From Blasia pusilla (lineage: Eukaryota), in NCBI GenBank assembly GCA_050084515.1, contig CM114271.1:12214001-12278000 (forward strand): a stretch of DNA of 64,000 nt, given 5' to 3'. The position numbers and the translations under genes are program-made. Below are positions 2,601-24,720 of the stretch, in pieces (position 1 is the first letter of the stretch; each line of letters opens with the position of its first letter). Under the pieces are notes generated by a model. It saw only the letters and a list, made by a program, of their open reading frames with translations. It had not been told where the DNA came from and searched no databases.

Positions 2601-2759
2601 TTTGGGAGAACTAAATTGAGTATTAAATTCTAGTGGTTTTAGATTGAAATCCTTCTAGTGTGTTAACATTCCTATGATAGTGAAAAGTGATGAATTACAT
2701 CTGAATACAGAGTCTAAAGAGTACAAAAAAAATCAGAAAGCACTAAAAGTGAGTCCTTA

Positions 2760-4121
2760 TTGCTTGGAGATCATAGTACTAGCTTGAGTGTCTATAAAAA
2801 TAGAGTAGAAAACCTTCGACTATTGAGTACATCCATGGAGAGAGCAAATCTCAGCGATTATGTTGTGGCTTATGATTTGAGTACAGAGGGGCAAGCAAGA
2901 TCTAGGGGTATTCAAAAAGAGGCAACCTATATGTCTCCACAAAGACAGCCATCACCTCCATGCATAGCGAGGGAGGCTGAAAATGACAGTAATGACCACT
3001 TTAGTGATAAAAAACATTCCACCAGCGACGATGAGTTTGAGTACACTCCATCTTCTGCTGGAGTTGAGAGCCTTGTCCTTGTGGATAAGGACCTTGATGC
3101 TGATTTCCCACTTGACCAGGAATGTGCGAGGAAGATAAGGGAAAACAAAAAAAGGCAAACATTCTTACTTAGTGATATTCTTGCAGAGTAAGGAGTTCTC
3201 CCATTTGCATAATGTACATTCTCTTAATTGAATTTCTTTCACAATGTTTTTTCTTCCGTGTACTTCACGTGTATATAAAAAATAGAAAAAAGATTTAATT
3301 ACTTGTAGATGGTTAATGGTGAAATCCTTGTAAGGAAAGGTAGGCTCAAACCGGCAAAGCAACTATGAAAGCCTTCCCTTCTAGAGTAGTAGTGGCAGAG
3401 GGTGTTGAAGTGTGACGAAGTTCAAGGTTGAGATCAAAGGAGAGCTTACCTAATATGATTGAAAGCACAAAGGATAATATTGTGAGAGATCCTGATTATA
3501 TCCCACTTGAACATATGGATTTCCAATCTGATGATGATGAGGGCACGCCATATCGTTCTATTGAGAACCAAGACTTTGGACCGACAACCCATCCCGAATA
3601 GGTTGAGAGGGTAACTACTTTAAATCTGCCACTTCCTTTTTCATGATTGAATATAGGATTCCTCTAATCATGGTGATGAATAGAATGTCCATGAGTCGTA
3701 CAAAGAACTGGCACTTATTGCGTTTGGACATGCTTCAGGTTCTGGAGGACGAGAATCCTTCGATTCTCAAGAAAATTCTAAACCCCTAGAGCCCTGTTCA
3801 CATGTGAGGCTGCAAATGGGTTGGCAGTATCCTATATGTCCTAATCCCACATGGTCAGAAAATGGGAGTCGTTGGAATAGCTAGATGGGAGTGGGGTGGT
3901 ATCCGTATGATTATCATCCATCAATGATGAATCTTTTACAAGCTGGATCTTATAGTATGCCACAACCCCCTTCCTCAGCCCCACCTCCACCACCATGGGG
4001 TCAACAAACTCCTCCAACAAGATTGACTATTCAACAACAACGGGTCGGTGGCATAAATTGGTCACAACCCCCAATGGGAGAACACCAATGGGCTCCTACT
4101 TTACAAAAATGGATTCTTTGA
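2760..4121 (+). pseudogene. Degenerate acidic and Pro/Gln-rich ORF fragments, possibly the second gene of the CACTA remnant
   Basis: Directly downstream of Tnp2 on the same strand, with low-complexity composition like the 35054-35813 region of the second CACTA. No diagnostic motif. Confidence 0.3.
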
Positions 4122-4442: not shown

Positions 4443-6952
4443 TTATGGAGGAGAATCTTGCATAGGTTCACAAGACTCGGTGGAATAATTTTGAATTCCT
4501 ACTTGTGCGATAATTTGAGGGTCGTAGGTTGTGTTAGCTGAAGTGTTGGGTAAATTCACTTCTCTTGAAGTCTTCCGTTGTTGCTCTTTGGCATGCTCTC
4601 GAATCCAATGTTCCATTATATCATCATCTTCGTCTCTTCGAGGCACCTCGGAGTCAACATTGAGTGTTGCCAATATGACTATCTTGACTTCCTTTGATGC
4701 CAACTGTCCTATAATTTCCAGATAGCACATCCACATCCTCTAGGTCCTCATCTTGCAAGTCGAGGTTATCTTCATGATTACCATCATGGTTTTGTGCATG
4801 TAAGGTAGACTCACTACCATCTTGTACAACCCTTCTAGCTTATTTTTGTCCATTCCTTTCAAAAAAGTATTGCTCCTACATGAGTCCTTATCTTGATTTT
4901 TGAGAAACACCCTTGTCTCCAAACCTTGAGTTTGTGTAGATATACACCAAATCCTTGGCACGCTCATTGGTCCATTTTTTCCTATGCTTGTTGTGGATAA
5001 AACCGTAACTACTCCAATTTCTCTATGCTGAAGAGGAAGAAACCACTTGTGCTAATACAGACTTAGCCCCATAGCGCAATGTTGGTGTATCTTGATCGTG
5101 CATGCTCTACCATTCAGAGGGACTTAGTGAATCTACGACTTCCTTACTAAACTCATCCACAAATACTTCCTGATGGTTCACAATGTTTCCCAGCTCTTGC
5201 AAACAAGTACTTATAAAATAAATTACCTCCGTGACGTTAAGGCCATACATCCCCTTTGCATTGAGTTTTAGATATTGTTTGCAATCTCTCATGCACTCAA
5301 CATTTGAAGTGATGTCTTGCACACTATCAAGAAGATTGTAAGGGCGAGAATGTGCCCTATTGCATGTAACTTGTTGTGGATAAGTGCCCATCGCCTAGAA
5401 ATAACATTAACCATTTCCGTAGCTCTGGATATTGTCACAAAAAAACCGTGATGCCTTCCACCCGCGCCTGGCCATGGGGTTATTGGAAAAGAACGGGTCT
5501 CCTCCATTATCTCAAATATACGACGATAAATATGCCCCTTCATTGCTTTATGACAATCACACTCTCTCACAAGAATAATAGTTGACAAAGCCGCATCAAA
5601 AAATTCCTCACCTTGTATCCAAAAATCATGATTGGCCATAATAGTCTCAATTTCTCGTGCCTTCTCCCTTTGCCTTGCATCCCTCCCTTTGAAATACTCC
5701 CTAAAAGTATTTGTGGCAACGATGGCATGGAACGCCTCCCTCGATTCTAAGACACGTCCCAACAAGATAAAGTTTGTAGTAAAGTGTGTGTTTGTAGGAA
5801 GCAACAATCGTCTCTTCACTGGATGGTTTCCATGAATTTGGCCATTACCCAAGTTCTAGTCTTCACAAAGACTACCATCTCATGAGCTTGTGCAAAAATC
5901 CTGTCCATCCAAGGCCATTTTCCCCATTCTTCGCATACTAGATCAAGAGAATGTGATACGCATCCACCCCAAAGAATATGAGGAAACTTTGCTTCATTTT
6001 TTTTCCGTGTTGCTCGCTCATTGCTAGCATTGTCCTTCACAAGCTGCAACACATTATTTGGATTGATGCGGATGATAGTCCTCTCTATGTGACCTGCCAA
6101 CCATTTTGCCGTCTGGAATTCCCCCTTGGTGTCTACCAACTCAATCATGACCTCACCTTGTGGACACGAGACCATGATGTTCACTAAAGACTCACTCCTT
6201 ATATTGGTCCAAGAATCTGTGATGATCATGGCCCCAAACGCAAGTTATCCAATATGATATCCACCTTTTCCTTCACCTTCCCCATATGTTTCTCAAGTAG
6301 GATAGTGCGCAACGAATGTAACTAGGACCTGAGTAATCCTTCACCTTTGATGTTGCCAAAATTTCTTCTTTGAAGCATCTTGCCATACTACATTGAAAGG
6401 TATTCTACATTTGTAGAAACACTTTGCCCACATGTCATTTGCAACTTCTATTCCTTGCATGTTGAAAGAATCCCTCACATCGGCTTGCTTCTTCCTAGAA
6501 ATACTACTTCCTCCCATCGGCCCAACAACTCCTCTAGTTGCATTCCTTGAGAGTGTCACATGGTGGCATGTCCGTGACCCCATCAACACTTGACACAATA
6601 TGAACACTATTTCTGTGTGTTGAGAACTTATTTGTAATGGCGTCATCTTCTCATCTTCACACGAGGGTCTCGCTTTCCTCCTTTGTCCATTTCCCATCAG
6701 TACCCTGTTTCGGAGATCGTGTTGCACACTAGGAGGGACCTTCACACATGATTTGGCATGATGGGTATCATGATTCCCATCCTTTTTCTTTTGTCTCTCT
6801 TGTGTAAAATGCTCCACCATCCGAGTGCTATGATAGGTTTTCACAGAATAGGAACAATACGTACACTGCCATCGGCTTGATGTTCCACCTTCACGATCTC
6901 TTGGAGCTCTTTGGCTTTGGTCATGACTACTGACACAGGCAGACACTAACAC
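4443..6952 (-). pseudogene. hAT-superfamily transposase (BED zinc finger, DUF659-like core, dimerization region), degenerate
   Basis: WQCTYC...MVEHF...SC (BED finger, 6341-6952). IITDSWTNIRSESLVNIMV, DNASN, CVSHSLDL (5816-6229). THFTTNF and HAIGHIL (5289-5852). SSS.*RNWS-like dimerization motif near 5010-5040. Confidence 0.85.
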
Positions 6953-7940: not shown

Positions 7941-9228
7941 CCGCACCTGTTCTTGTGGGTGGAGCCCGCACGATCGACCCGGGTGCCAAAAAAATCCAGG
8001 CTTGCGACCGGTTTGCATGTCTATGGTCATGTCTGGACATGTCCGTTTCCGTGCAACCTTGAGGGTGGGTATCGTGAGCCGATGAGCCAATGGTCTGTAT
8101 TGACCTATGTTTCCCAACAGGGACCATGGTTGGCTTGTTGGACATGTGGTGGGTCACATAGGGAGAGGGATTTCCCACAACAAGGGAGAGGGCCAAGGGC
8201 GCCTTCGATTGCTCAAGAGCCACAGTGGATGGCCCCACCACAATTGTAGTGTGATCATTGTCATCGATATGGTCACACTAGGGACACGTGTTATGATCTA
8301 TTCCGGGAGGTGCGCCACAGGTAGGTAGAGGACTTGGGGGTGAGAGAGTTGGTAGAGATCAAGAAGTGGATGATCGTGGTGGTAGAGTGCCATGACCAAT
8401 CACACGAGATGGAGCACGAGCACCTTATGGAGCGCTCCTTACAAGCATCGATCAATTGGAGCAGAGGATTGTTGCCATGACAATGATGGAGCCAGTGATA
8501 GGCATAGAGCCGAGAGTAGCTAGTGTGGCTCCAACCTCTATTTTGTATCAGGATACGGGGGAGGACAACACCGGGTTGAGATTTTTGTGTAGTGCGGCTC
8601 AAGTTGAGGCTGCTGCAGTGCTGACTCGGGGTGGTGCGAGAGTAACCAAGCCATTGAGAGGTGGGGTTGAGATTGATCCACATGAGGGGACTGATGGGCG
8701 ATAGGCAAGGGTTCCCAATCATTCATGTTGTCACAAGAACTTCATACACCGTCGATGGTGCCTTGACAACGGGTAGTACCCACGGGTGAGGCAGGTGCAT
8801 CAACGTTACGAGGAGTTGGAAAGACGACTCTTGTGCCGGCTTGGGAGGAGCTAATTTTGACCATGTTGTTGGAGGTGGCCACTAGGATGAGCGAGGCTCC
8901 AATTAAAAAACCCCAAAAATGAAATTTTTTCCTTAACCATAAAAAAAACCAAAAAAAGTTGCAACCCGTCGGATTTCTGACTGGTTGAAAACGTTAAAAA
9001 AATTCTCAATTTTGTTTTTCACCACCGAATTTTTTTGGAAAAAATTTGCCTGTTCAACTTGTCAAAACTTTCCTCTCTGCGACCCGTCTGAAACTCTCTT
9101 CAACCTGTCAGAAACTCTCTTCAAACCAAAAGAGCCCTAGGGGTTGCCAATATCTTTCTCTCTCCTCTCTCCTCTCTCCTCTCTTCCTCTCTTCCTCTCC
9201 TCTTACTGCTCCTCAAAGTTGTGCCTAT

Positions 9229-10175
9229 GTTTGCAGCAGGGTACAAGAGTGTTAGATCTCTTCGGAGGGATCAACACCCTGCGAGTTGCTGCAATGTGGC
9301 AGTATTGCGGGGATGACGACACCGATGGTCCTAGATGTGTATAGGATAGTATATCTTGTTGCGTACATATGTGTGTGCTATCTGGAGCTGGGGGGACCCA
9401 ATTGCTAGCCGGTGGGGCAGTTGTGGGATCCTAGTGTATATGCGTGAGTATGTTTCATTTATATGTGGATCTACCCGTGTGTTGGGGAAGATCGGTATTG
9501 TGTGGTATGTAGATGTGAGCAGCGATGTGGGTTGTGTAGCGATGTGTATGCGCACGAAAACTATCACATGCATCTTACTTCGATGTAGGTAGAGTTCTAT
9601 CACGTTGACGGCATAGAGAGTCAACGGGCTGTTTGGGTGTAACTTCGTCCCGAAATGTCGGATGAGGTTGGCAAGAGGTCTGTTGTGTCAAGAACGTCCT
9701 TTATGGCAATTTCTCTAGTATGGTTTTAGTCCATCAGATGACTCATTGAACGAGTCAATGATTACTCGATAATCTGTGCACGCAGGTTATCGTTGGTAGG
9801 GCTATTTTTGGCTCTTTCCAAGGGTATAAGAGTGAGGAAGATGGCTTTCCCAAGCCATCTTTCTCATGTTGAGCCTTGGGAGCGCTTCTCTTGCATAGAC
9901 GTGTGTGGGTATGTAGGAGTTAGGATGCCTGTCCAGATTCCCTCATAGTAGAGGGTGGATGTGGTTTGATATGCCGATGTAGATTCATGAGTGGAGTTTT
10001 AGGCGGGCTTAGCCATTTTATCTACTCTTGATTTTGTTGTGGGATCCGAGTGTATGTGCATGACTATGTTTCATTTATGTGTGGATCTACCTCTATGTTG
10101 GGAAAGATCGGTGTTGTGTGGTATGTAGATGTGACCAGTGATGTGGGTTGTGTAGCGATGTGTATGCGCACGACA
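9229..10175 (+). mobile_element. Heavily deleted derivative of a sister DNMT/PHD Ty3-like family, retaining the B1-A2-B2 3' terminus
   Basis: QQGTRVLDLFGGINT (MTase motif I) is fused to PHD remnants (LQCGSIAGMTT..PRCV*). 140-bp direct repeats follow at 9420-9559 and 10036-10175, flanking a 474-bp A-like block. Ends in gatgtgtatgcgcacgaCA, as copy 1 does. Confidence 0.8.
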
Positions 10176-10199: not shown

Positions 10200-12983
10200 A
10201 AGAAGATTGAAAAATGGAAACATCCTCATAATGAGTGCATATAATTAATGCATTTTAGTGAATGTAGTCTATTGCCTCGTTCTCAATAATGAAACAAGAA
10301 GATGACCATCATGCATATTCTCATTTACTAGGTTGAATACACCAAATGCTCATGAGGAATCGATGGTGATTAGGGTTACTCTAGTGATGAATATGTGTTA
10401 CTAATTCATAAGAACAAGCATATTCTAGAAAACACGATGAACTTGTATGAGATCCATGGCAATAGGTTGAAGATTTATGGTTGCATATAGGTGGAAGTTG
10501 GCAAATGTCATATGCCTACTACTCTTGAACTTTAATCTCAGATGTTGCGGAAGCGTACGTTGTGTTGGTCACACTCACTCTGCTAATTTGCACTCCAACA
10601 CACTTTCATTAGTCTTCATTTGAGCCAACCATCCTTTGACTTCCGGAGTTCTCAACTTGGGCCATGCATCAAGCCCAATAGGTCCTAACTCCTCACTTCC
10701 AAACATGGGCAAGTCTTCCTAAACTTGGGACAGACTTTCTAGATAATGGAGACACCCAAAATGACGCTTGCACGCTTGGCATTCCCAACTGTCCAATGAA
10801 CCTTGCATGAGTCCCTAACCAAGACCGAAGAATTGAGTCACGGATTGGAATCCAAGGATGACCTCCGAAATTCACTCCCTTAGACTAGGCTTGGTATTTA
10901 CATCCTAATGCCGACCTCCCAATCTATTTCATGCCCTTGGCCCTTAATTAAAATTTGATCCATGAAGGTTTCCTCCCGATTTATGGACATTAACACATGA
11001 AACGCTGAACCTTGCTCACATATCACATGTCTTGTCTCCTTCAAGAGACTTCTCTGATGTGTATCCATCTTAATGTGAGCCTAATCGAGAGCCTACTAGA
11101 GTCTTGAGGTTTTGCATTTGGGCACATTTGGTTATGAGGGTTGCAACAATAGAAGTACCCAACAAGCATGACTAGCTTCCCATTAAATATGTTTCCGATA
11201 TTTAAAGGAGAAACCTTATTGATTCTCATTTGCTATAACTTGCAACAACTAAGTTCTTAGCATTGAGCATTCATCAATTACAATGACCTCGCAGACCTTA
11301 AGTTTAACATAAGAATTGGAAGTGGCATGTAGAGATGGTATATCAATGCAAATTAGTATTTCAAATGCTGAATGGACCAAAAAATTTCCTCAAGATGCAA
11401 GCAAATGGCTGCAATCCCATTTATGGCAATTAGCATGGGGTCCATCTTGTTAACCTTCCAAAAGTTATACATGAAGGATGCAAAGAAAGAATTATTGCAT
11501 CTAAGTGCCCTTTTGAGGATAAGTAGATATGTCTTTAAGTCTTTAAATTCCATGAATAACCCTAGCTACTATGAATTGAGCATATTGAAATCAAGGTAAG
11601 AGACTACATTGTCTTGAGGCTGGTCACGTGAAGTTTGAGATGGAAATGGTTCATAAATAAGCGCACTTCTATCCAAATCTAATTCAAGTTGTAGTATAGC
11701 AGTAGTTATGGCTATGATCTCAGCTTCGTGGACTTGGATCCAAAAATTTCTTCGGGCATGAGACATAAGTAAGGCAGGAATATCGTGCATATTGTGTACA
11801 ATCTCTTGCTAAATAGATTCTTTAACTACATCCAACAAGGGGATAGAGATGACACAATAGCTTCTTCTAAGAAAAACGCAATGTGGCTAAGCATCACTAA
11901 ATAGAAAAATCCATTGGTGCAAGGGATGGAATTAAAAAAATCTAACAAGAAGATCTATTTAGATGTAAGATTCCCTAAGTTGTCTAAACCTACAACCTTC
12001 AAGTTCAACTTTCATGGATGAGATTTAAGTAACTTATACTCTAACCAATATTGTGTGAATTTCAAGTCCCCTAATATAGAAGGTCTATTTAGATTGAGTG
12101 TAGTGGCCCAGTGGGGTGAATGTAAGGTAAGGAAGCATTGTTGTAGAGGCAAGTTCTTCTTTTTGGGAGGATTGCAATCCACATAGTGGATTGCTTGGGA
12201 TCTACATATTATAGGAATCTATAATGAGGTCAAAGAATCCTCTATTGAGCATAAAAATCTATTCAAAACAACAATGATATTAGCCTAAGCTTAATATCAT
12301 CTAATCCCCCCAAGCTATGGTACTTTGTTGACTGTATATCAATGTTTAATGACCTAGTTGGTTCATACTTCAAAGAATACTTCAGTAAATAGAAAGACCA
12401 ATCCATATTTGTTGCTGTTTGGATATTCATATGTGCACCCTATAGAAGTTTCACAAGAGGATGGTAAGGATTACAATGCGGTGCTCTATAGCAGACTTGT
12501 AGTGATTCCACTTGATTGTGCAAGGATCTATGAATGGCTGAGTTTCAAGGTTTATGGTAGCAGGAGACCCAAGGTGGCAATAAGGCTTTTTGTAGCCTTT
12601 CCTAATTATGCAAATACCTTCCTTGCACCTATAATATGTTTGTACAAGATTAAATATAGAAGGGTTTGGGACGGGTTTAATGTAGCGTTGGAAGAAGTCA
12701 TAGTTGATCCTTGGCTTGTACTTAATGGAATATAGTGCAAATTTCAGATGTAATACCTTCAACATCAACATCATGTCTGCAGAATATGATATGGGAGTGC
12801 AAGCTACCTCTGCCTTGCAACTTATATCAAACTAAATAATCTTTTCCTTCACCAAGTATGCAACGGCGTGAGAAAATAAAGAATGTAAGATGTGACAAAA
12901 GGGAATAGGAATGGAAATGAGATTGTTTCAATAGCTAAGTGTAGATCAACTGAGGTTCTTGATATGTCTACCAATAAGCTTTC
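10200..12983 (-). pseudogene. Highly decayed Pif1-family helicase / Helitron-like remnant; may continue at ~22676-23400 beyond the retroelement insertion
   Basis: Minus-strand translations give LIAINGIAA (motif Ia-like), EVIVIDECSML (Walker B, ~11258-11290) and FNGKLVMLVGYF (motif III-like) in the correct order. ETISFPFLFPF near 12900 resembles a Helitron Rep-region motif. Many stops; boundaries uncertain. Confidence 0.55.
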
Positions 12984-13512
12984 TTTCACGTCTTTTAGGA
13001 TAGATCGATGAGATCTAGTAGAACGCCTTCGTGAGTAGTAGAGGACATGCTCAATAGGTCGAGGATGACCTACTAAGGCCCCAGGAACCCAAGGGGAAAC
13101 CTGAGAGAGCAGGTTTTCCCTTGGTTTCGGCTCATTTGGAGCCATATTGAGAAATTTACTATTTTAGGTAAGTACCATTTTCAGTATATGATTAAATTTA
13201 TATTTTTGGTAAATGGCCCTTGACCTCCTACATCAGGTCAAGAGCCAAGGAGGTGACTTGGGAGGATAGGTTACCATGGAGGGAGCTTGGGAGAGGGGAG
13301 GGGTATACCTCAAGGAGAGAGAGCTTGAGAGCTCATTCTCTCTTTGTTGAACCTCTTGGCATGAGGCCGTGGAGGTATGGTCTTGCTTGCCTTGTGTGTG
13401 TAACCCAAGCCTCTCATTAGCAGAGTGGGTTTGGTTTGACATTGAGAGAGATATGTGAGAGTGCACACATGTGAGAACTATGGTGTTGTGAGAGAGATTG
13501 GATCTTATTTTA
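12984..13512 (+). repeat. Terminal repeat A1 of copy 1
   Basis: Homologous to 60608-61120 and 47550-48062 (reverse complement). Contains a TATA-like gggtatacc at ~13301. Confidence 0.88.
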
Positions 13513-13527
13513 CAAAGAGAGAATGAG
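13512..13527 (+). promoter_or_regulatory. Putative self-priming primer-binding site
   Basis: acaaagagagaatgag, directly after A1, is the exact reverse complement of 13332-13347 (ctcattctctctttgt), ~28 nt downstream of the TATA-like box. No TGG-type tRNA PBS is present. Confidence 0.65.
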
Positions 13528-15090
13528 TGAGTGAGAGAGCTTCATGGGAGAGCTCGCTGGTTGCTTGATGTTTGGTGCAGGTTGGGGGTCCATGTTCCCC
13601 GCTTCATGGCTCATGGGCGTGCTCACCGGAGCAAGAGCCATGCAAGTTTGCTGTTTTGCTTTGCTGATTTTTTGTACGGAAGAGTGGCACGCGGAAGCGC
13701 TGCCCAATTTTTGATAGGAATTGAGTATGGGGGCGGATTGCTCCATGCCAGTGCTCTCTAGACCACCATGTAGCTTGTTGATTTGTGTTCTCATAGGTTT
13801 TATATTTTCGTTGGGAGAAATTAGCGCCGAAGTGCTGCCAAATTTTGTGTAGGAGAAAGAGACATTGGGCTTTACGACAATCTCGGTCTATTTTTACTGG
13901 AATGTCCGATTCAAAATATTTTTTAACGTAGTTGTAGATCGTCAAGTTGTGCACGTTGTACAATAAAAAGTGCGCAATTTGGAGTTGCGAGCAAAATATT
14001 ACAGTCAATCTTGCAAAACTGCCATTGCTAGGCAATTTTTAGGGTTAAATTGTTCAAACCCTAAAGTAGCCGCCGAGCCGGCGGCGGCCGTCGCCGTCAT
14101 AGTCATCATCAACGGTCCGTCGTCACCATCAATGGTCCACCATCCACTGTCCATTGTCGGCCGCCGCCGCCGCCTAGCATTGCTCAGAGCCGCGTTCGGT
14201 TGTTGTCCACCCTTTGGTTGCCATTGCCGCCATAACGGAGTGAAGGGTCTTCCACGACCACCGTTGATTCTCTAACTTGTGCCGCCACCACGTACTTTGG
14301 TTTGGCCACCACCATCATCGCATCTTTGTCATCAACAAGTGATGGCAGGTAACCTCGGGTTATGGCGTTTGAGTTTTCATTTCATGTTGCTATGTTGTGA
14401 TTGGTAGCGGCTCCACGACGATCAAGTACTATGCCGTGCCGCCCATAGCCACAACGTGCCGTCGATTGCCGCGCCGTGTCGCTCATGGCCGCACCACACA
14501 CTCTTGATCGCGGAGCCACTCCTTCACTAAGGAGCAGAGCATGTCAATTTCTGATTGAGGAGGGTATGCCGCCCAATGCCATATCCCATTCCCGAGTGCC
14601 GTGCCGTTTGTAGCCGTTTCGTGCCGCCAGTGCCGCATTAGACCGCTGGACCTCCACTGCACATCGAGGAGGTTTGAGCAGCATCAATACAAGAGGAGTA
14701 CGACTTGTTGATTGGAGGAGTTGGCTCCACGACCAAGTTGGGGTTGAGATTTGCAGTTGCCGAGGAGCGACATCAACATTATTGTCAGGTTACCCATTTT
14801 GGTCTCTTACTCTGCACGTGTGAGGGATTTTCGGGTATTGAGAAGTTATTTGGGATATTGGGTTTCATGTTGATGCTAGGAGCATCAATGATGTATGGGT
14901 TTAGGGGACATAGATCTATATGGGATGTCCAGAGTTGAGGATGGTTTGTCGATGAGATGATAGAACAGTTGATTTGCCGCACCACGCTACTTGTTGCCGA
15001 ACATGACACATCTCGGTGAGAGAGTGTAGATTGAGTGCTGCATGTTTAGTTCGAGTGATTGAGGGATTACTTGCAAGATTGAGAGTGATC

Positions 15091-16400
15091 ATGTGAGAGG
15101 GGCACGAGGCCATCACGACGTCCTTTCAGGATTTTGAGAGGCGAGCTAGTGGACCTGAGAGTAGCCCTGGAAGGTTTACCCGGGGTGGTGCGAGGTTTTG
15201 AGGGTCTCCACATGAGAGACCACCTCGATCTCCTTCAATATCATCTTCAGACGAGGGGGAGCATGTAGAGGAGTGTGTTAGTGATCCACCGTACACATTG
15301 AGTAGTCCTACCAGTTGGGCATACGAGATGGACGACCGGGGTAGCGGACCGCGTAGGTTTTCGAGTTCATAGGCACTATAGAGCTACATGACTTCATTTT
15401 AGAGTTTGAGAGTTGGTGTGACTCACAATGGGCTAGGAACTCTAGAGAGTTCAACCCGTTTACAACATGGAACAATGTGTTCTAGTATTTAGAGGGGGCG
15501 CCCATGGACGAATACCGTGAGTTCTCCCACAGATATGCCTAGGAGATTGAGGCATGGCGACTCTACTATGACCCACACTATGTGTCATGGAAGGAGCCGT
15601 TCCCAAATGAGGAGGAGGAGTCAAGAGAGGCTACTTCCTCTTCCACTAGTGATGTTTTAGGAGGGTTCACTCGCACTGGAGCTATTGCACCGTCTAGTCG
15701 GGTTTGTTCCAGGTTCAACCTCGTGGTTGAGTTCTTTGCTGAGTTGAGGGCGAGCTACCAGAGGGTACGGACGGAGAAGTTACAAAGCATCCATGACTTC
15801 TAGAGGCGCCCGGGTAAGAGTTTGCATGAGGCTTACACTCGCTTGCGCCGGTTGATCAACGTCACTCGAGGGGCGATAGAGGCTCAGGCTATCCAATCAA
15901 GGTACGCGATGTTCGACCGGATCCTACGGATACGGGTGCGGGAGGGGATGCTTCTTATGAACACCTCCCCTACGTTGAGAGATTGTTTTAGGACCGCCAA
16001 GAATATTGAGCGCAACATGGCGGAGGAGAGCGTAGCCACCATGGGTTCTAGGCGAGAGCAGTCACGATTGTCTGCACCACCTATACAACAACGTGGACTC
16101 CTAGATAGGTCCACTATGGCAGCACGAGCTCAGGGAGGATATCAAGAGGCCGTGCCACACAGACCTGCGCCTTCATATGCAGCTTGGCAGCAACCCCCTA
16201 CGATTACTTGTTGGCTAAGTGGTGGAGCCCATCATCAACGTGATTGGACTCGTTAGGGTCATAGATGTCTGCCTCAGCATGGCGGAGGAAATGATGTTGC
16301 AAAAGGAGGTTATTAGTGTGACTATTGTCAGAGATATGGTCACACACGCGCCAGGTGTTTCAGTTTACACCATGAGTTACGTCCAGATCGAGGGCCCGAG
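15091..16400 (+). pseudogene. gag region with two CCHC zinc knuckles, copy 1
   Basis: Capsid-like GxSLHEAYTRLRRLI, then CWLSGGAHHQRDW (copy 2 ends ...HQRDC) and CDYCQRYGHTRARC. Start approximate; stops and frameshifts present. Confidence 0.75.
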
Positions 16401-17289
16401 AGGGCACGACAGCGAGTAGCCGGTCCGGATGGGCCTAGAGATAGTGCACCTGATGGTCCTGTTGGGGGACGAGGAGCTGGAGTTGCCCAACAGGGTGGTG
16501 GAGCTACCCATGGAGGAGGTGGAGTCCCACCACCTAGACGCGTCGAGGGAGATGCCAGGCATGAGGCTGGGATGGCTGCTCAGATACAATAGCTACAAGA
16601 GCAGATTGCTGCTATGGCATTGAGATTACTCGATGCCGGATCCGTGGTATCGACATCATATGGAGCAGCCAGAAATATGGAGGATCCTGGTTGGATGTGT
16701 GCGATCACCCAAATGGAGGCCGCCATAGTTGTGATGGATGGAGCAGCCTTGGATCCACAGCGAGGGGAAGCGAGAAAACAGACCAGGCTTCCTAAGTCTT
16801 TCACGTTGTCCGAGGCAATGAGGACCCCATCGATGGGTCCTGATCAGAGTTCCTGGAGAGTTGGTGATGTTGTTGGTGTGTAGGCACGGAGGGCGATGGG
16901 AGAAGCAAGTGCGACAACTCCTATTGCTGATGCTCAAGCATGTGTCGAGCACGTTGTTGGGGGCGGCCACTGTTCTGTACCGCGCCCCTTTATTTTCTGC
17001 TTCCGATGTTATGACGTTGGGAGGTACGCCCGCCGAGGTTTTTTGGCTGGCCGCTATGCTATGTGAGCATGGAGTTGGAGTTCCTGTATCACAATTAGAA
17101 GTGATTGCAGAGGCGGTGATGGACCTGCCCTATGAACGGACACTCGGGCCGTCCACGTCAAATTCATGGCAGGCTGCGGCTGCTAGGATGGCTGAGATGC
17201 CCGCTAGACCGGCGACAGAGCATGCCATGGATTCTCCAAGTGTTGTATTGCTGGATAACTGGGGAGAGGTCTTCTAGTTGGTGAGTCCC

Positions 17290-17660
17290 GGAGGTAGAGC
17301 TTTTAGTCCGCAACGCGTCTTGTTGGATTCAAGAGCGCTACCCCTGATGTTCGGAAAGCATCAGTGAAAGGATTGGGCTTGACAAGAGCCGATGTGGAGC
17401 ATTTTCCATTCCGGATACATACATCCTTGGGTGGAGCGAGTACCACATAGTATATCACCCGACAAGAGGTGGTGGTGAGGATTCGCTCGGAACATCCTAC
17501 AGATGAGTCCGTGGTGCGAGCCAAGGCGATAGTGATTGATGCAGAGTCCTACGACGTCTTGGTTAGTGGAGAAGTGTTATACCTGATGGGGTTTTCCTTG
17601 GATTGCTGGGAGGAGTCAGCATCCTACAGACCAAGATGGTAGTCAGGTGATGGGCGCCTT
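17290..17660 (+). pseudogene. Retropepsin aspartic protease, copy 1
   Basis: RVLLDSRA at ~17314-17337 (copy 2 keeps RVLLDSGAQPLMLG), with downstream YDVLVSG (DxLLG-like motif). Confidence 0.8.
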
Positions 17661-18029
17661 AGCTCATTACCCGTTTGATTCACAGGTGTAGTGATCGAGC
17701 GACGGCGAGGAGAGATGGCGACCTTAGCAACATTTAGCAGTGCGATGACTTGGCCTAGTGATTTGATTAAGGGACATGTCCATGCAGAGGATACTCCCAT
17801 TCCTGAAATTTCTATGGGGAGGAGTGTCATGGTAGCTGCATCAATGTGTGGAGGAGAGGTGCCACTTTGAGGCTTGATTGAGGAGCTTCAACGCTTAGCC
17901 ACTCAGTATCTGCAGACCGCGTGTAGCGAGACGTTTGCACCAGAGTGTGACGGGTGAGAGGAACCTTAGGTAGGCAGGAGTGCTACTTTGACCCTTTTGA
18001 ACACCACCTCAATTGTATGGTGCATCCCA

Positions 18030-19000
18030 GAGGAGGGTATTTGGATGTTGGATCTCTTTGGAGGGATCGGCAATGGGTTAGTTGCTATTTTGCACGCTGG
18101 AGTGCGCGTGCAGGAGAACGTGTATGTGGAGATTGATGATGTTGCAAGGCGCGCTTCACTTCACCATGTGGCGCTGTTATGCCTCCGTTTTCCCGACTTG
18201 TTGTCTGCGTGCGCCATTCAGGGTTACCAGAGTTCCCTACCGAGGGACATTTCATTGTTGGGGGGCCAAGACTTGGAGCGGGTAGGGACCATAGACTTGG
18301 TCATTGCTCGTTGGCTGTGTCCAGGCCAATCAAGAGCTGGACGAGGTAGCGGGTTAGCTGACACTTGGTCCAAGTTATTTTGGGAGATGATGCGGATCTT
18401 GCAACATTTATAGAAGCATCAGCCTCGTTCTCCAGCATACATTTTGGAGAATGTGTCGATTTTGGGCGATTCGAGGTCGTGCGTGGTGACGAGTGCACAT
18501 CAGGTGCGCACATGGATCGGCTCGACAGTGTTGTTAGATGCGGTGAGTTTAGGTTCTACAACACACCGCCCGCGTCTTTGGTGGACCAATTTGGTACCAC
18601 ACGAAGTGTTGCGGAGGGCTTATGCGAGAGTGGAGCGTCCCTCCTATTTGTTGGTGGATTCTATATTGGATCCATGCCATCGATCACAAGCGGTGAGGCA
18701 CGATGATCGACCGCCGTTGACTATAGTCAATAGGATTGGCATGCCACGAGCAACCTTTCCCACATTGGTGAGGTTTCCCGCTTCTTATGCATTCAAGGAG
18801 GCCCGACCTGCCTTGGTTTGGGATGACCAGGTACAGAGGTTGGTGGAACCCAACGCCGATGAGCAAGAGCGAGCAATGGGATTCCCCACAAGAGTGACGG
18901 CAGTACTGTCACTATCGGAGGCATCAAAACGTCAACTCTTGGGTCACGCGATGGACTTGAACTGCTTAACATGGATTTTCAGCTTTGGAGTAGCTAAGCA
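18030..19000 (+). pseudogene. C5-cytosine DNA methyltransferase domain, DNMT3-like, within pol, copy 1
   Basis: Motifs in canonical order: I LDLFGGIG, II YVEID, III RDI, IV VIARWLCPGQSRAG (copy 2 ISGWPC*), VI YILENV, VIII HRPRLWWTN, IX-X ERAMGFP...RQLLGHAMD. One reading frame 17988-19022 broken by a single TAG at 18411. Confidence 0.92.
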
Positions 19001-19295
19001 ACGTCGTTTGAGGATGCGATAGTTCACAAAAATTTTGTTGGTGGGCCCCATGCCTACCAAGACGGTCAAGGCAGTGGCTGGGGGCGAGACCTAAAGACAT
19101 CGACATACCAGGGATGATCGAAAGAGACACCCTTGGACTTCTTGGGATGTTTTGCAGGTACACCAAGAGATGATAGCCATAGCATCGAGCGTGGTTCCGG
19201 GTACTACATGTGGAGATGAGAGTTCTATTGTCCGAGACGGGGTTGCACCATAGCAACCACCAAAATCCGCGCCGGAGAGTCCTAGTATAGTCACG

Positions 19296-20260
19296 ATGGA
19301 GACTTGGGAGCCACATATGGGCCCTAAGTTGACAGGAGGAGAGCGGCGTCAGATACACCATTTCCTTAGGAGTTATAGGAGATGTTTTGCTTTTAGTATG
19401 CATGATTTGGGTATGCTGAAGGGTCTAGGGATCCGAATTGAGTTGTCGAGTGACACGCCGATCTTCCCACGACCCTATAGGTACAGTGACATGGAGAGGG
19501 GTCTAATTCAAAGAAGGAGCCAAGACTTGGTTGGAGCAGGACTAGTGGAGATTTGCATGGAGAGTATGCATCTGCCCCTATCATGCCCGCCAAGAAGGAT
19601 GTGCATGGCAATTAGACGGATAGGCGGATGTGTGGAGATTACCGCCCTATCAATCGACATACAAAGTTTGATAGGTATACCATGCCCACCCCTGAGGAGA
19701 TCTTTGATATGATTGGGCATGCAAAGATCTTCAGTTCATTGGATTTGCGAGCCGGATACCATCAACTGCCTATAAGATTGGAGGACATACCAAAGACGGC
19801 ATTTTGGGGCATCAATCCTCACGGGAAGGATTGTTTGTACCGGTGGAGGTTCCTACCATTCAAGTTAAATAATGCTCCAGATGAGTGACAAAGGATCATG
19901 GATAGGATCTTGGCAAGTGTGGATTTTTCTAGGTGTTATATTGATAACATCGTAGTCTTTAGCACCACGGTTGAGGAGCATGAGCGACATCTAGAGGAGG
20001 TGTTTCGACGATTGCAGTTATATGGGCTGAAGCTATATCTAGGCAAGTGCAAGTTCTTCTACGGGTAGATTGAGTACTTGGGTCATACGATATACCTAGG
20101 GGGCCTTGGTGAGCAATAGACAAAGGTAGAGGCTATTTCATGTATTCCACGTGCTACAGATATGAGTCGAGTTCGTGCATTCATGGGATTGGCAAACTTC
20201 TATCAACGGTATGTGAAGGGTTTCAGTTCAATTGCGAAGCCGCTAACCTTGATAACCAAG
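19296..20260 (+). pseudogene. Ty3/gypsy reverse transcriptase, copy 1
   Basis: RMCGDYRPIN, IFSSLDLRAGYHQL, KTAF, PFKLNNAP, YIDNI (19937; YIDD variant), KCKF, YLGH, FMGLANFY. Confidence 0.95.
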
Positions 20261-20329
20261 ATGGATCAGGAGTGGCACTAGGGGGATGAGCAAGAGAGAA
20301 AATTTCAGATGCTCAAGGATAGATTGACG

Positions 20330-20740
20330 TCCGCGCCCATATTGAGGAGACCGATCAAGGGGCGTCTTTTCCGGTTGTATACCGATTGGAGCATGTTGGG
20401 GCTTGGAGTCGTGCTCAGCGAGCATGACGATGATGAGAATTTGTGGTGGCTTACGCTAGTCGCTTGAACAACGCTGCATAGGCAAAGTATAGCTTGTATG
20501 AGGGTGAGTGCTTGGCTGCAATGTGGGTTGTCGCACATTTTAGATGTTCTCTATTTGGAAATCCCTTTACCATCATTACTGATCATCAGCCACTAAAGTG
20601 GTTGATGGAGTCCGACAAGCTTACAAGGAAGCTTGCAAGGTGGGCTCTTTTGTTGCAGGATTATGACTTCCAGGTGGTGCTGCATAGACCTGGGACACTC
20701 AACCAAGATGCAGATGGTTTGAGCCGTAATCGATACCCGA
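20330..20740 (+). pseudogene. Ty3/gypsy RNase H, copy 1
   Basis: LYTDWSMLGLG, VVAYASR, YEGECLA, IITDHQPLKWL, LARWALLLQDYDF, NQDADGLSR. Confidence 0.93.
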
Positions 20741-21099
20741 GTCAGCAAGATGCGACTAGAGCTCGTTGGCATGGTGAGAGTGATGAGGAGTTGGTGCTAG
20801 GATGGCATGCGTCAGCCTATTTGGGCTTGTTGGCCATGGAGAGCCAGATTGCTGAGACTTTGATGGCGAGGTCTAATGGAGAGTCCGTAGATCCAAAGGC
20901 CCATGAGAAGATGACAGGTGGCCGAGACATTCACGACGATGGAGTGGTCTTGGAGTACTTGCGTACTGGCAGCGTCGCGAGCACAATGGGTGCTAGAGAG
21001 CGGGATCGGATCCTACAGCAAGCCAGACGGTTTTGGTGGGAGGGCACACATGTGTTGCGAGTGTGGGAGGATGGTAGAGTGCGTGTAGTGCCTCATCTT

Positions 21100-22160
21100 T
21101 TGTAGAGAGCATGTTTGGTGCATCATGCCTACGAGGAGTTGGGTCATTTTGGAGTGAAGGGGACGTACAACTTGCGCCAGATTCAGTATTGGTGGCGAGG
21201 CATGCAGACTGACGTTCAACAGTTTGTTTCCAGATGCATGGTGTGTGATCAAGTGTGAGCATCGTTCAATGCTCCCACTCCATAGTTGCATCCACTTCCG
21301 TTCATGGGCTTAGGTTATAGATGGAGTTTAGATTTTGCAGCACCTTTACCTTTGACGAGGCGCCATAGTCATTATGTGTTGGTGATGGTCGAGCACTTCT
21401 CGAAATGGATAGAGTTGGTTGCATTGTCTGACAAAGCGAGTGAGAGAGTAGCATATGCCTCCTAAGATCGAGTGTTGAGACATTACGGCGCACCAACTAA
21501 GGTGTTGACAGACCAGGGTATAGAGTTTTGTTGGGAGTTTCAGGCCTTGTGTGATCAGACACTGATTGACCACCACACTACTTCGCGAGATCATCCTGAG
21601 GCGGATGGACTAGCAGAGCGGGTTGTGTAGACGGTGAAGAGAGGACTACGCAAGTATGACTTTCAGAGAGTTCACCTAGGAGATTGGGACCTTTAGTTGC
21701 CGTGGTTGGCGATGGGATACACATTCAGCAGGCAGGCATCCTTAACGTCTTTCTCACCGTACTTGTTGCTTTATGGCTGAGAGCCAAATTTACGTGCGGC
21801 CATTCCTCGAGATGTTGATGAGGTTTTGAACCTTGATGACCCAGATGTTTGGATGCGAGCATGTTCTCAGAGGGCTGAGCTATTTTGGAGAGTGATGCCC
21901 ATGGCGTTTAAGAACTTGGCGATTGCGCAATATCGGGATACGTTGAGGTATGTGACTATTTGGGGAGGTGGTTATCGACCTCCTATCCCAAGGTTTCATC
22001 AGGGAGATTATGTCTACTTGCAGCAGAAGGCGCTCACAACATTGGATGTGACTACAGGCCGTACCATCTTGAGAGTGTGTGAGGTTTTGCCATCCACTGT
22101 TCTCTTATTGGAGGGACGCGATGGTATGGTTTGGAAGGACCATGTGCCTAACTGTACGTC
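21100..22160 (+). pseudogene. DDE integrase (HHCC zinc-binding region plus rve core), copy 1
   Basis: LGHFG...WWRGM...CMVC, WSLDF, VLTDQGIEF, HPEADGLAERVV*TVK, FSPYLLLYG. Confidence 0.92.
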
Positions 22161-22227
22161 ATGTCATCTTCCGAACATTGATGGTACATTTGATCCAAGC
22201 TTAGCAATAGTTCTTTTAGGCTTGCGG

Positions 22228-22368
22228 TGTATGTTGTGTGGTTTCGTCCGTGGCGCAGCCACTATGCTAGTCTGTGATGGGTGTTCGAGAGGATGGCATA
22301 TGGCATGTTTGACGCCACCTCTCACTAGGGTTCCTCAGGGACGATGGATGTGTCCCAAATGTACATAG
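22228..22368 (+). pseudogene. C-terminal PHD finger (C4HC3) of the polyprotein, copy 1
   Basis: CMLCGFVRGAATMLVCDGCSRGWHMACLTPPLTRVPQGRWMCPKCT* has all eight zinc ligands and the conserved W. Confidence 0.92.
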
Positions 22369-22547
22369 AGTAGGTAGTTCTACATTCCGACTTGTGTCTG
22401 TGATATGGATGACAAGAAGGCGACTAACGACGGGACCACATGAGCACCTGACCTGCTTGCTCTTAGCGTCCGAGAGATGTATGTCATAGTAGGTAGGGAT
22501 AGATGGCTATTTGGAGTTAGAGGGACCTAATCACCAACTAGGGGTCA

Positions 22548-22675
22548 ATTGGAGATATTTTGGTACTTCTTGTCTCATTGTTTGGATGCCATGAGTTAGC
22601 ATGGGATCGTGCGTGTTTGTGTTTGTGTTCGGTGACAACGATGTATGTTGTGTAACGATGTGTATGCGCACGACA
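22548..22675 (+). repeat. Terminal repeat B of copy 1 (128 bp)
   Basis: Matches the reverse complements of 47422-47549 and 48065-48192. Preceded by actagggg; ends in CA. Confidence 0.9.
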
Positions 22676-24250
22676 TTTTGTTAAAAGAGGAATTTGTAGT
22701 TAAATATAATTTTTAGTTCCACTATCAAATATATCACGAGATGATCTCCTTTGTATTAGAAAACAATATGCAATATCTTGCATAATGTTGAGATTGGGAT
22801 GATAAAAATCGTGACTTATATTATGATTCACTTTTCTTTTCTCCTAGGATGAATTAATTATCCTTTGGACTGATGACGCAGGTAAGACTACTGGTCCGGA
22901 AGAAGGATTTGGCAACTTGAGAAGGGTCTTATAATATCTATCAAATGGGTTAATCTGGAGATTTACATGAAGCAGGTGTTATAATAGGTGGTATAGAATA
23001 CTTGACGTAAGGCACTTTGCTGCTAAGGTTGAAAGTAATACAAGGAGAGTCTAAAATAGAGGTGGCTGAGAAAAATCCTTTATGGAAACCATTGGAAAAT
23101 TTCTCCACTCATATTAAGGAATTTGTTACGGAAAAAAGTTGGAAGTGGAAAGGATTCACATGATCTAGTATAGCTCTAATGTAGGATGGAGTCATATATA
23201 CAATGCGGCTCATTATCAATGCAAAAATCACAAACATGGAATCTTCCTAGTTCGGGTACCATAAAATCTCTTAGGAATCCATTGCACAAGGCATAAAGTT
23301 GGTTGGATATAGATTCAAATACACACATTCGTGAAAGTTGATTCCAATACATGACATAGCCATAGTAAACGAAACATTGCATATTCTTTATTATATTATA
23401 GTAGAATCCTTGCTATCTTCTCATAAATGAAATTGATGTTGACCAATTTGAACATTGCGGCCTACAACCTACCTTCCTAGAGAGGGCAAATCTAGTTTGC
23501 ATCTTGAGTTGGAAATACTTCAACCTAGATTTGGTGAAGAGAAGCGTTATTCTCTAATGTCGCTTATTTGATTTTGTTTCTAAGGTTAAGCGAAGGGGAT
23601 GCCCTATGAGTCATGCAAGAGAGCAATACTCACTAGGATACTATATGGAAAGTATATATATGATTACCTATATTACGCAATTGACCAAATTTTTCATGTA
23701 TAAAGCAAACTACATAACTTTTCTTCACTTACTGTACTTTCCTACAGTCGATTGTAATTTCAAGAGCTCAAAGTGTCATAATATCATGATTTTAGATTAT
23801 TTGGGAAGATATGGATGAGGTCGAAAAAAAATTCTAAAATATCATTTAGGATTTTTCTAATCCTTAGTCACCAAAATTATTGATCGCCTCCAAAGTCTTT
23901 TCAACTTTAAGACTTAACATGAATCTTCCACCTTCTAAACTAATTCTCCATCTTAAATCTCTGTTCCCAAAACTAAATTTGGATGCACTCTTTCCTCATT
24001 TCTCTCCTTGTATATCAAGGATTTTAATAAAATGTCTCATATTATTCTAATATCATGTAGAAAAATTCCTAAATTAACAAGCGTAGCTCATGTCATATGA
24101 ATCTCACATATACACACCAACATAGAGAATTAAATTCTACAATGAGAGAATGATTGAGGATTAGTCCCTTCTAAATATTATTACAAGAAAATTAAACCCT
24201 AACCATAATCTTTAATTATACTAAATATCGTTAAATTATCCTTATTAAAG

Positions 24251-24720
24251 TGTCACATCTTAGTTAGTCAACAAAAAAGTTATATTTTGTTGACAACATA
24301 AAGAGGATCAATGGGCTTGTTAGGCTTTACTTCATCACAAGGTGTTGGATGAGGTTGGAGTTAGCTCCATTGCATTAAGATTTTCGTTTAGGAAAATCCC
24401 TTTTTCGCTATTTTAGGCTAAATTATCTATTGATCAAGTCAACAATCACATGGTGACTTGTGTGTGCACATTACTGATTTTGGGCTATTTTTGGCTTTTG
24501 AATCTAGGGGTATATACGATGGGAGAGATGGCTTTCATAAGCCATCTAAGGTTTTTCATATAAAGTCTTTGGAGGATTTCAAGATTTAGGTTTGCAAGGG
24601 CTTGCGTCCGGATTCCCTCATGGCAAAGGATGGATGTGGCTTGATATGTCAATGTATATTCATGAGCAGATTTGGCTGGGAATTAGTACTTATCAGCAAC
24701 AGTTGGTTAACCTTTAATTG
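24251..24720 (+). mobile_element. 5'-terminal A repeat of a third related subfamily (truncated)
   Basis: Begins TGtcacatc. Shares ggatgaggttgg, gggctatttttggct, gggtata, agatggcttt...aagccatct and gattccctcat...ggatgtgg.ttgatatg blocks with 9562-10035. Confidence 0.7.

Follow-up and report, generated by a model that had tools for sequence, protein, structure and literature searches.

Retrotransposons that carry a DNA methyltransferase of their own form a rare class that has already been described. In the charophyte alga Klebsormidium nitens, the KnitGypsy-Dnmt3 elements combine intronless Dnmt3-type domains, situated in the pol of long terminal repeat (LTR) elements of the Gypsy type and evolving with a ratio of nonsynonymous to synonymous change (Ka/Ks) below 0.2, with repeats like those of DIRS elements (de Mendoza 2018, PMC5890265). 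According to the same source, K. nitens holds fewer copies of its element than Symbiodinium, and self-methylation of the complementary DNA (cDNA) has been published as a hypothesis for these elements. Later papers refer to ‘streptophytes (Gypsy-DNMT3)’ (bioRxiv 10.64898/2026.05.21.726589; PMC12344493), and what a transposon gains from carrying an enzyme of a host-silencing class is a question posed since 2018. Here we analysed a stretch of 64,000 nucleotides of the genome of Blasia pusilla (henceforth referred to as the window; contig CM114271.1, positions 12,214,001 to 12,278,000) and conclude with high confidence, for identity, family membership and past selection taken jointly, that it contains an LTR-type retrotransposon of the Gypsy-DNMT3 kind, in the form of two long-dead copies, which inserted independently, and one fragment. 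The element belongs to that known kind (de Mendoza 2018), as the initial annotation of the stretch had already remarked in calling the idea not new, and is found here in a very large, still transcribed family; the window copies themselves are inert, ordinary dead repeats. The published case concerns few copies in a charophyte alga, and the present one land-plant lineages, a very high copy number and a family transcribed in the species of the window.

A DNMT3-like cytosine methyltransferase had been placed between the protease and the reverse transcriptase (RT) of a Ty3/gypsy element. This arrangement was recovered when copy 1 was read through in three frames and compared with Pfam, the protease being placed by homology, which gave the order gag(CCHC)-protease-DNMT-RT-RNaseH-DDE integrase-PHD finger from the following parts of copy 1 (positions are those of the window):

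12981-22677, plus strand: copy 1, whole element, by homology with copy 2
12981-13511, plus strand: terminal repeat A1 (5' end), which matches A1 and A2 of copy 2; homology starts at 12981/61124, and the end of A at 13511 is taken from read joints 13511->22548
15369-16841, plus strand: gag region with 6 stops, by tblastn to residues 18-490 of Marchantia relative P0064
from 16317, plus strand: CCHC knuckle CDYCQRYGHTRARC, read in the sequence
16945-17642, plus strand: putative protease region, by tblastn to P0064 514-648
17970-19022, plus strand: DNMT3-like C5-cytosine methyltransferase domain in one frame with one internal TAG, from open reading frames (ORFs), Pfam, PDB matches and relatives
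19613-20092, plus strand: reverse transcriptase (RVT_1), in a frame different from that of the DNMT, by Pfam
20285-20664, plus strand: RNase H (RT_RNaseH_2 / RT_RNaseH), by Pfam
21118-21597, plus strand: integrase (Integrase_H2C2 21118-21255, rve 21316-21597), by Pfam
22228-22362, plus strand: C-terminal PHD finger (PF00628, E 9e-11)
22548-22677, plus strand: single terminal repeat B (3' end); A2 and the second B are missing in copy 1

Consecutive Pfam matches to RVT_1 (71.5 bits), RT_RNaseH (77.9), Integrase_H2C2 (43.6) and rve (48.7) identify the pol of copy 1 as Ty3/gypsy-type, and the methyltransferase lies between the protease region and the RT in both window copies; the stretch of copy 2 homologous to the copy 1 protease region (56872-56447) matches the Asp_protease_2 part of relative P0078. 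That the two copies are independent insertions, as had been annotated, is seen from their differing flanks and from their 84.7% identity over 9634 aligned bases (transition/transversion ratio 2.1; blocks 12981-18734 = 61124-55348, 18727-20029 = 52128-50781 and 19968-22671 = 50779-48069). The pol frame in the window copies is now broken through decay, and the concern that the domain might lie out of frame with pol is not borne out by the relatives, where the two are in frame: P0078 and P0081, in both of which Pfam finds zf-CCHC, hold the full order within one ORF, with CCHC at 515, protease at 787-878, DNMT at 969-1266, RT at 1415-1569 and RNase H at 1632-1760 in P0078. A DIRS element with its tyrosine recombinase, which would be expected from split repeats, was ruled out by the rve and Integrase_H2C2 matches, and no tyrosine recombinase was matched by Pfam in three sense-strand frames of copy 1. 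SymbioDIRS-Dnmt3 and other DIRS/PAT/Ngaro elements likewise have split direct repeats and a Dnmt3-type domain in pol (PMC5890265), but DIRS-type elements use a tyrosine recombinase where the window element has an H2C2 plus rve DDE integrase, and the Symbiodinium protein was a weak match only (E 2e-9). Chromoviruses are Ty3/gypsy elements with a chromodomain at the integrase C-terminus. The window element likewise has a chromatin reader fused to the integrase C-terminus, but no chromodomain was found there and the PHD finger PF00628 stands in its place.

The two ORF pieces of the methyltransferase, 17970-18413 and 18414-19022, form a single reading frame interrupted by one TAG (18411-18413). 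When read through with X at the stop, the domain has 351 residues, and with these as query against the PDB it aligned to DNMT3A catalytic domains in three collinear stretches covering motifs I-II, III-VIII and IX-X; the best E-value was 5.2e-7 for DNMT3A, compared to 1.4e-3 for DRM2, which matched in the first half only. The motifs of copy 1, whose numbers we take to be those of the C5-methyltransferase nomenclature, are as follows:

18048-18077, plus strand: motif I, LDLFGGIGNG, read in the sequence
18306-18341, plus strand: motif IV, degenerate, ARWLCPGQSRAG; relatives have AGWPCQGH[ST]RAG, and Pro-Cys-Gln is lost
18438-18455, plus strand: motif VI, YILENV, read in the sequence
18552-18590, plus strand: motif VIII, GSTTHRPRLWWTN, read in the sequence
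18867-18956, plus strand: motif IX-X, ERAMGFPTRVT..LLGHAMD, read in the sequence

As stated in the initial annotation, the motifs run from I to X in one frame, collinear with DNMT3A and without introns in the window domain, and the circularly permuted DRM order (VI-X before I-V) was not seen. In motif IV, copy 1 has RWLCPG in place of GWPCQG and copy 2 has SGWPC*SQS, while intact relatives have GWPCQGH[ST]RAG together with ILENV in motif VI. The catalytic loop that had been reconstructed by comparing copies, GWPCQGQSRAG plus ENV, is close to these and agrees with the relatives in keeping both PC and ENV. Using a family profile, which kept the gag and protease columns of long rows (1197 positions), the PDB ranking was DNMT3A (1.3e-18), DNMT3C (9.6e-15) and DNMT3B (1.7e-14), followed by the DRM enzymes of tobacco and Arabidopsis (3.1e-10 and 1.2e-7, first half only), M.HhaI (3.5e-5) and DNMT2 (3e-4), and no DNMT1-named chain was among the 58 PDB matches at E<=1e-3; weak matches to HIV nucleocapsid appeared because the profile carried the gag and protease columns. 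An AlphaFold2 model of relative P0001, which is 61% identical to copy 1 (predicted local distance difference test score, pLDDT, 87.1; predicted template modelling score, pTM, 0.87), agrees with this ranking, since the top Foldseek matches shown were all DNMT3A/3B/3C catalytic domains over the whole length (best E 2.4e-19; target-normalised TM-score 0.82-0.85 over about 326 columns). The closest class by sequence and by the fold of the modelled relative is DNMT3A, so the annotated preference for DNMT3 over DRM stands. Plant DRM2 has a related core in which motifs I-IV align, but its permutation leaves only half of it collinear with a domain that runs from I to X. Host DNMT3A/3B/3C are the best match in sequence and fold and have motifs I-X likewise unpermuted, at about 20-23% identity, but host DNMT3 is a stand-alone multi-exon gene with PWWP/ADD domains, whereas the window domain is embedded in pol and Pfam detected neither PWWP nor ADD in the element or its relatives; solved DNMT3 catalytic domains have about 285 residues compared to 368 in the modelled P0001, of which the first 27 are disordered. 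Overall, judged by sequence and by the predicted fold of P0001, the domain appears to be an unpermuted DNMT3-type C5-methyltransferase without the reader domains of DNMT3 itself. The KnitGypsy-Dnmt3 elements resemble it in having a Gypsy-type LTR pol with an intronless, unpermuted Dnmt3-type domain in the pol ORF (PMC5890265).

We then compared copy 1 with copy 2 by the method of Nei and Gojobori, with codons mapped onto the residues of intact relatives, and obtained the following ratios of nonsynonymous to synonymous substitution (dN/dS):

DNMT: 0.254 (340 codons, bootstrap 0.18-0.34, dS 0.60)
RNase H: 0.20
integrase: 0.21
integrase C-terminus with PHD: 0.29
RT: 0.46
protease-linker: 0.67
gag: 0.71

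Control calculations in which the DNMT codon strings were shifted by one or two bases gave 0.80 and 1.94, and the low in-frame value is therefore a real signal. It is also equally low on both sides of the TAG that the two copies share (0.29 upstream, 0.23 downstream). The methyltransferase was thus under purifying selection of the same strength as RNase H and integrase while the two subfamilies diverged, contrary to the neutral evolution that had been named as a possible objection, and KnitGypsy-Dnmt3 was likewise under purifying selection, with a published Ka/Ks < 0.2 compared to 0.25 here (PMC5890265). Among the relatives, an alignment of 18 sequences shows no variation at the Cys of PC or the Asn of ENV, and 15 representatives with 33-45% identity to the first sequence all share the Cys, the Gln and the Glu of ENV. 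This invariance of the catalytic Cys and of the ENV Glu suggests selection for catalysis and not for binding alone.

To place the window copies within their family, reads of one genomic and three RNA runs from the same species were mapped to 11000-24700 at >=80% likeness. Of 12,434,590 genomic records, 190,639 (1.53%) fell on this stretch, and the DNA depth, summed over both orientations, was 1220-2130 in gag, 1701-1911 in the DNMT, 2700-3600 in RT-integrase and 2550-2860 in A1, compared to 0.26-1.48 in four quiet flank bins, a baseline that rests on about ten reads. The family is on the order of thousands of copy equivalents, and because the read depth of the DNMT is about that of gag, the methyltransferase module is a standing part of the family's pol and not a one-copy accident or, as the initial annotation had feared, a one-off capture absent from most copies. 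Only 135 genomic reads are >=99% alike to copy 1 and 144,292 are <90% alike, so the family is old and diverse; the K. nitens element, in contrast, is described as having few copies (PMC5890265), against about 1.5% of genomic reads here. RNA reads (7189, 7684 and 7479 in the three runs, about 0.07% of records) cover the whole element, with a depth of 31-64 in the DNMT bins, and nothing in the flanks. First mates fall on the minus strand with a 10- to 50-fold bias, which argues against DNA carry-over. Between 2 and 7 RNA reads are >=99% alike to copy 1, 5351-5647 are <90% alike and nearly all are <95% alike, which indicates that other copies are expressed and copy 1 is not.

The matches listed in searches with the copy 1 domain comprise 60 proteins of about its length, the best at E 3e-132 and about 60% identity, and 20 longer proteins, with Marchantia polymorpha (e.g. 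Mp_4g09160 and Mp_8g17980), M. paleacea, Calypogeia fissa and Sphagnum species as named sources; relatives with the same order were found in Marchantia and Calypogeia, and the Sphagnum matches were partial. Close relatives are thus already present, without comment, in the public annotations of Marchantia, Calypogeia and Sphagnum, and the nearest named relatives are liverworts and Sphagnum, where the host of KnitGypsy-Dnmt3 is a charophyte alga. Marchantia polymorpha is a tractable model in which ORFs of intact appearance carry the annotation ‘hypothetical protein’, and together with a transcribed land-plant family these ORFs allow the question of the transposon's gain to be tested genetically. 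When 1.84 billion cluster representatives were searched with the family profile, 637 clusters had E<=1e-30, of which the best 150 all had E<=2.8e-87 and were all family members; at E<=1e-3 there were 12,477 matches, part of them perhaps generic gag or protease, since the gag and protease columns in the profile inflated the looser counts. Further named members came from Scenedesmus, Cymbomonas, Haematococcus and Mesostigma, with weak matches from Tetraselmis and Symbiodinium. No host DNMT3 was returned by the word-indexed searches or among the best 150 of the profile search.

Within this family the methyltransferase occupies two places in pol. By Pfam, P0078, P0081 and P0077 have the layout CCHC-protease-DNMT-RT-RNaseH(-integrase), and P0080, P0084 and a Scenedesmus pol have the layout RT-RNaseH-DNMT-integrase-PHD. 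Home-made hidden Markov models for DNMT, RT and integrase (INT), run on 308 fetched proteins of which 305 have the DNMT, gave the following census:

RT-DNMT-INT: 86 proteins
DNMT-INT: 40 proteins
RT-DNMT: 18 proteins
DNMT-RT: 7 proteins
DNMT-RT-INT: 7 proteins
DNMT alone: 147 proteins

A FastTree phylogeny was built from 218 domains with >=85% coverage plus the two window copies (220 in total); it is unrooted and contains no host DNMT3. One branch with Shimodaira-Hasegawa-like support of 98 has on its first side all 9 of 9 DNMT-before-RT proteins, both window copies and 44 DNMT-only proteins, and on its second side 135 of 135 proteins of other layout and 30 DNMT-only proteins, so that layout splits the DNMT tree perfectly (144/144 informative rows). 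A second tree (also unrooted, FastTree only) was built from a subsample of 102 rows, namely those that are named or have the DNMT before the RT, with 45 informative and 30 DNMT-only rows drawn at random; in it, the window copies are sisters (99) within a 12-row clade (99) that includes Calypogeia, Marchantia and P0061; Mesostigma falls on the side of the window, and Scenedesmus, Haematococcus and Cymbomonas fall on the other. As for distribution, the protease-DNMT-RT layout was observed in liverworts, Mesostigma and the window, and RT-RNaseH-DNMT-integrase-PHD in green algae (P0080, P0084, P0127). The green-algal elements, exemplified by ‘pol’ KAF8056149.1 of Scenedesmus sp. PABB004 and by those of Haematococcus and Cymbomonas, have a homologous DNMT (E about 1e-120 to the family profile) and also a Gypsy-type RT, RNase H, integrase and C-terminal PHD finger, but their DNMT lies between RNase H and integrase, whereas that of the window element lies between protease and RT. 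On the strength of the unrooted domain tree, the green-algal type (RT-RNaseH-DNMT-integrase-PHD) appears as the sister clade of the window and liverwort type. Literature searches, limited to openly available papers, yielded de Mendoza 2018 and the later papers that cite the streptophyte elements, but no account of DNMT-carrying Gypsy elements in bryophytes, of their two layouts or of their PHD finger; Supplementary Figs 13-14 of PMC5890265 may already show domain order. Nothing relevant was found there on PHD fingers of LTR-element integrases, and the accessible parts of PMC11982613, PMC6453930 and bioRxiv 10.1101/2021.02.12.428880 hold nothing on these elements. How the element works can be approached further through its odd termini, its PHD finger and the match between pol position and DNMT tree.

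These termini are best seen in copy 2, on the minus strand, and in the third relative (the remnant), whose parts are:

61124-47420, minus strand: copy 2, whole element, by homology with copy 1
60607-61124, minus strand: terminal repeat A1, 90.2% identical to A2 over 512 nt (Kimura two-parameter distance, K2P, 0.106)
55342-56100, minus strand: N-terminal DNMT part (motifs I-VIII) with 5 stops, all at Gln/Arg positions of relatives, by homology
52129-55347, plus strand: nested Ty1/copia fragment splitting the copy 2 DNMT, with LTRs at 52123-52390 and 55031-55299 and matches to gag_pre-integrs and RVT_2
51837-52128, minus strand: C-terminal DNMT part (motifs IX-X) with one stop, by homology
48385-51487, minus strand: RT-RNaseH-integrase-PHD homology with stops and frameshifts, by tblastn to P0077 and P0080
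47420-48192, minus strand: 3' terminal structure, from repeat matches, of B1 (48192-48069), 8 nt, A2 (48060-47549) and B2 (47549-47420)
8115-10173, plus strand: remnant, a more diverged, internally deleted relative with gag homology (8115-8904), motif I (9249-9272), B1 (9420-9557), A2 (9558-10035) and B2 (10036-10173)

Copy 2 has split direct repeats in the order A1-internal-B1-A2-B2 and the remnant has B1-A2-B2 (9420-10173), whereas copy 1 has only A1...B. The B1/B2 pair of copy 2 differs by a K2P of 0.059, compared to 0.106 for A1/A2. The outer ends are TG...CA and the internal B/A junction is CA-NN-TG; each of the three subfamilies has a G-run ahead of B. Both joints are abundant in genomic reads, with 746 reads passing from the end of B to the start of A (22675/22673 to 12986, NNTG between the sides) and 901 from the end of A to the start of B (13511 to 22547/8), and the split-repeat form is therefore the norm of the family. 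RNA crosses the B-to-A joint (49-70 reads per run, or 65-117 with a second variant) far more than the A-to-B joint (8-15), so most transcripts seem to end in A2. A canonical LTR structure in which A is the LTR fits A1, A2 and the RNA running from B1 into A2; it fails on B2. No tRNA-type primer site was seen after A1. Short matches in the flanks (TTCT on both sides of copy 2, TTCT/TTTT for copy 1) are too short, and suspiciously alike in both copies, for a target-site duplication to be called. The window element is alike in this respect to KnitGypsy-Dnmt3, for which the legend of Fig. 4c describes repeats as in DIRS and domains as in Gypsy elements (PMC5890265).

Considering the trees, the reads and the termini as a whole, we tentatively propose, rating the combination somewhat below an even chance, that these elements would derive from one old, green-lineage-wide Gypsy stock with a DNMT3-type enzyme and a PHD finger akin to readers of the unmodified H3 tail, a pair that would mimic the reader-plus-writer of host DNMT3. 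Its two layouts, protease-DNMT-RT in streptophytes including liverworts and RT-RNaseH-DNMT-integrase in chlorophytes, would track the DNMT tree exactly, and it would number thousands of copies and be transcribed in at least one land plant. Its permuted ends would come from the integration of an LTR-LTR-like junction form cut at that junction by the DDE integrase, a speculation for which the G-run before B, the internal CA-NN-TG and the restriction of TG...CA to the outermost ends are the signs.

Several observations weigh against the reading of these copies as dead members of a large family of the Gypsy-DNMT3 kind. The Pfam match of the first ORF piece (17970-18413) to PF00145 is marginal (E 1e-4; 22.3 bits, the cut-off being 22), no Pfam match at E<=0.01 was obtained with 18414-19022 alone, and the three-frame read-through of the decayed copy 1 has no Pfam protease match. 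The designation ‘DNMT3-like’ is relative to the families represented in the PDB, which contains no DNMT4-type enzymes, so DNMT4 is not separable. The depth of the DNMT is 55-65% of that of RT-integrase, and some copies may be without the domain or the domain may be less conserved at the 80% threshold. The transcripts are probably in sense, an orientation that follows from usual stranded libraries, the kind of RNA library being unstated. Since neither window copy can encode an active enzyme, no activity is shown here, and when the Klebsormidium enzyme was expressed in yeast no DNA methylation was observed, a result that the authors called inconclusive (PMC5890265). Finally, no Klebsormidium protein was found by name among the 60, 20 and 88 matches listed or in 10 cluster look-ups, searches that were limited by a length window and a word index, and because of this the kinship with KnitGypsy-Dnmt3 rests on architecture and the published description and not on an alignment.

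As to what the enzyme does, it would, under the published hypothesis, which the initial annotation also put forward as pre-methylation of the cDNA, be made as part of Gag-Pol and methylate the element's own new cDNA before or at integration; we consider this possible but less likely than not. The PHD finger of copy 1 (22228-22362) is still open and well-scoring although the copy is dead, and its best solved relatives are CHD4 PHD2, PHF12, KDM5A PHD1, KAT6A/DPF, PHF21A, AIRE and UHRF1. PHD fingers of the CHD4/PHF12/KDM5A type mostly read the unmodified H3 tail, which host DNMT3 reads via its ADD domain. Going by this likeness, the finger might steer integration or the enzyme to chromatin unmethylated at H3K4, a suggestion that we regard as rather doubtful. 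The alternative that survives best, still on the unlikely side, is that the enzyme was kept for another role, such as RNA methylation, damping of its own transposition, marking of insertion sites to the benefit of host and element, or service as a DNA-binding module fused to the RT. The selection described above does not tell substrates apart, the domain is directly upstream of the RT, and the authors of the yeast experiment list these alternatives themselves (PMC5890265); however, sequence and fold are nearest to the DNA enzymes DNMT3A/B/C (1.3e-18) and not to DNMT2 (3e-4), and the invariant Cys and ENV Glu speak for catalysis.

Instead of sharing an origin with KnitGypsy-Dnmt3, the bryophyte-type elements (protease-DNMT-RT) could have acquired or placed their DNMT independently, as a parallel invention. 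The missing Klebsormidium name and the two different places of the DNMT in pol within the green lineage would fit this alternative, but given how the searches were limited the former is weak evidence, the unusual combination of Gypsy-type pol, DNMT3-type domain and DIRS-like split repeats is shared (PMC5890265), and the same DNMT clade includes a member from Mesostigma, a streptophyte alga. On balance, parallel invention seems improbable.

By tblastn against intact relatives, copy 1 has about 29 stops and at least 4 frame changes and copy 2 about 37 stops; both are dead. Copy 1 has lost the Pro-Cys motif and the domain of copy 2 is split by the copia fragment, and in these dead members the key catalytic residues are not conserved. 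Copy 1 (18411-18413, plus strand) and copy 2 (55671-55669) share an in-frame TAG ahead of motif VI at a codon where relatives have Gln. An ancestral defect or programmed readthrough was ruled out at this codon by the Gln of the relatives and by a dN/dS that is 0.23 downstream and 0.29 upstream. All 6 of the 6 stops in the copy 2 DNMT are at positions where relatives have Gln or Arg, and because stops occupy 4 of 15 Gln positions in copy 2, giving odds of about 4 in 15 of coinciding with the one such stop of copy 1, a parallel C>T hit at the shared TAG is unremarkable. At sites where copy 1 is at odds with half or more of the genomic reads, it has A for G (288 sites) and T for C (221) more often than the reverse (36 and 57, respectively), the mark of C>T decay in copy 1. 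After insertion the window copies decayed mainly by C>T/G>A changes. The broken domains, the lost Pro-Cys and the shared TAG are what one would expect if the methyltransferase were a passenger, i.e. a captured host fragment drifting neutrally in only some copies. Set against the low in-frame dN/dS on both sides of the TAG, the coincidental nature of that TAG, the invariant catalytic residues of the relatives, a DNMT read depth of about that of gag and the 637 clusters, we find it very hard to sustain. That a host DNMT3 gene was overrun by transposons, as a region full of transposon remnants might suggest, is scarcely credible: in both copies, whose flanks differ, the domain has the same neighbours in the same order, in relatives it shares one ORF with pol, the read depth is about 2000 times that of the flanks, and PWWP, ADD and introns are lacking.

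The second methyltransferase copy, annotated at about 51880-56050, was found on the minus strand at about 56100-55342 plus 52128-51837, on either side of the nested element. This copia fragment is 3.2 kb long and internally deleted, with 269-bp LTRs that differ by a K2P of 0.092; by LTR divergence it is nearly as old as copy 2 (0.092 compared to 0.106). At an assumed substitution rate near 1e-8 per site per year, a general figure and not one of this species, the A1/A2 divergence of 0.106 would date the insertion of copy 2 to a few million years ago. Motif I in a diverged sister remnant, annotated at about 9245, was confirmed as VLDLFGGI at 9249-9272 (plus strand), downstream of gag homology on the same strand (8115-8904); by our own arithmetic, the chance expectation for a given 8-mer in six frames of 64 kb is about 5e-6. 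The stretch 24278-24666 is 65% identical to A2 of the remnant (9593-9991) and is possibly a solo A of a further subfamily.

A 151-152-bp satellite, with monomers about 70-80% alike, forms two arrays (43673-46136 and 61245-62768) that flank copy 2. One array is separated by 120 bp from the 5' end of copy 2 (61124), the other by about 1.3 kb from its 3' end (47420), and the insertion of copy 2 may have taken place within or next to a satellite block. Inside copy 2, around the RT region, there is a 63-bp tandem duplication (50718-50842; 2 copies, 95% alike). Elsewhere in the window are gene remnants of CACTA/En-Spm-type DNA transposons at 1602-2282 (plus strand) and 37784-39557 (minus strand), with matches to DUF4218, Transposase_21 (tnp2) and Transpos_assoc, and two perfect microsatellites, (AG)90 at 40221-40401 and (CT)55 at 41228-41337, in opposite orientation and 0.8 kb apart.

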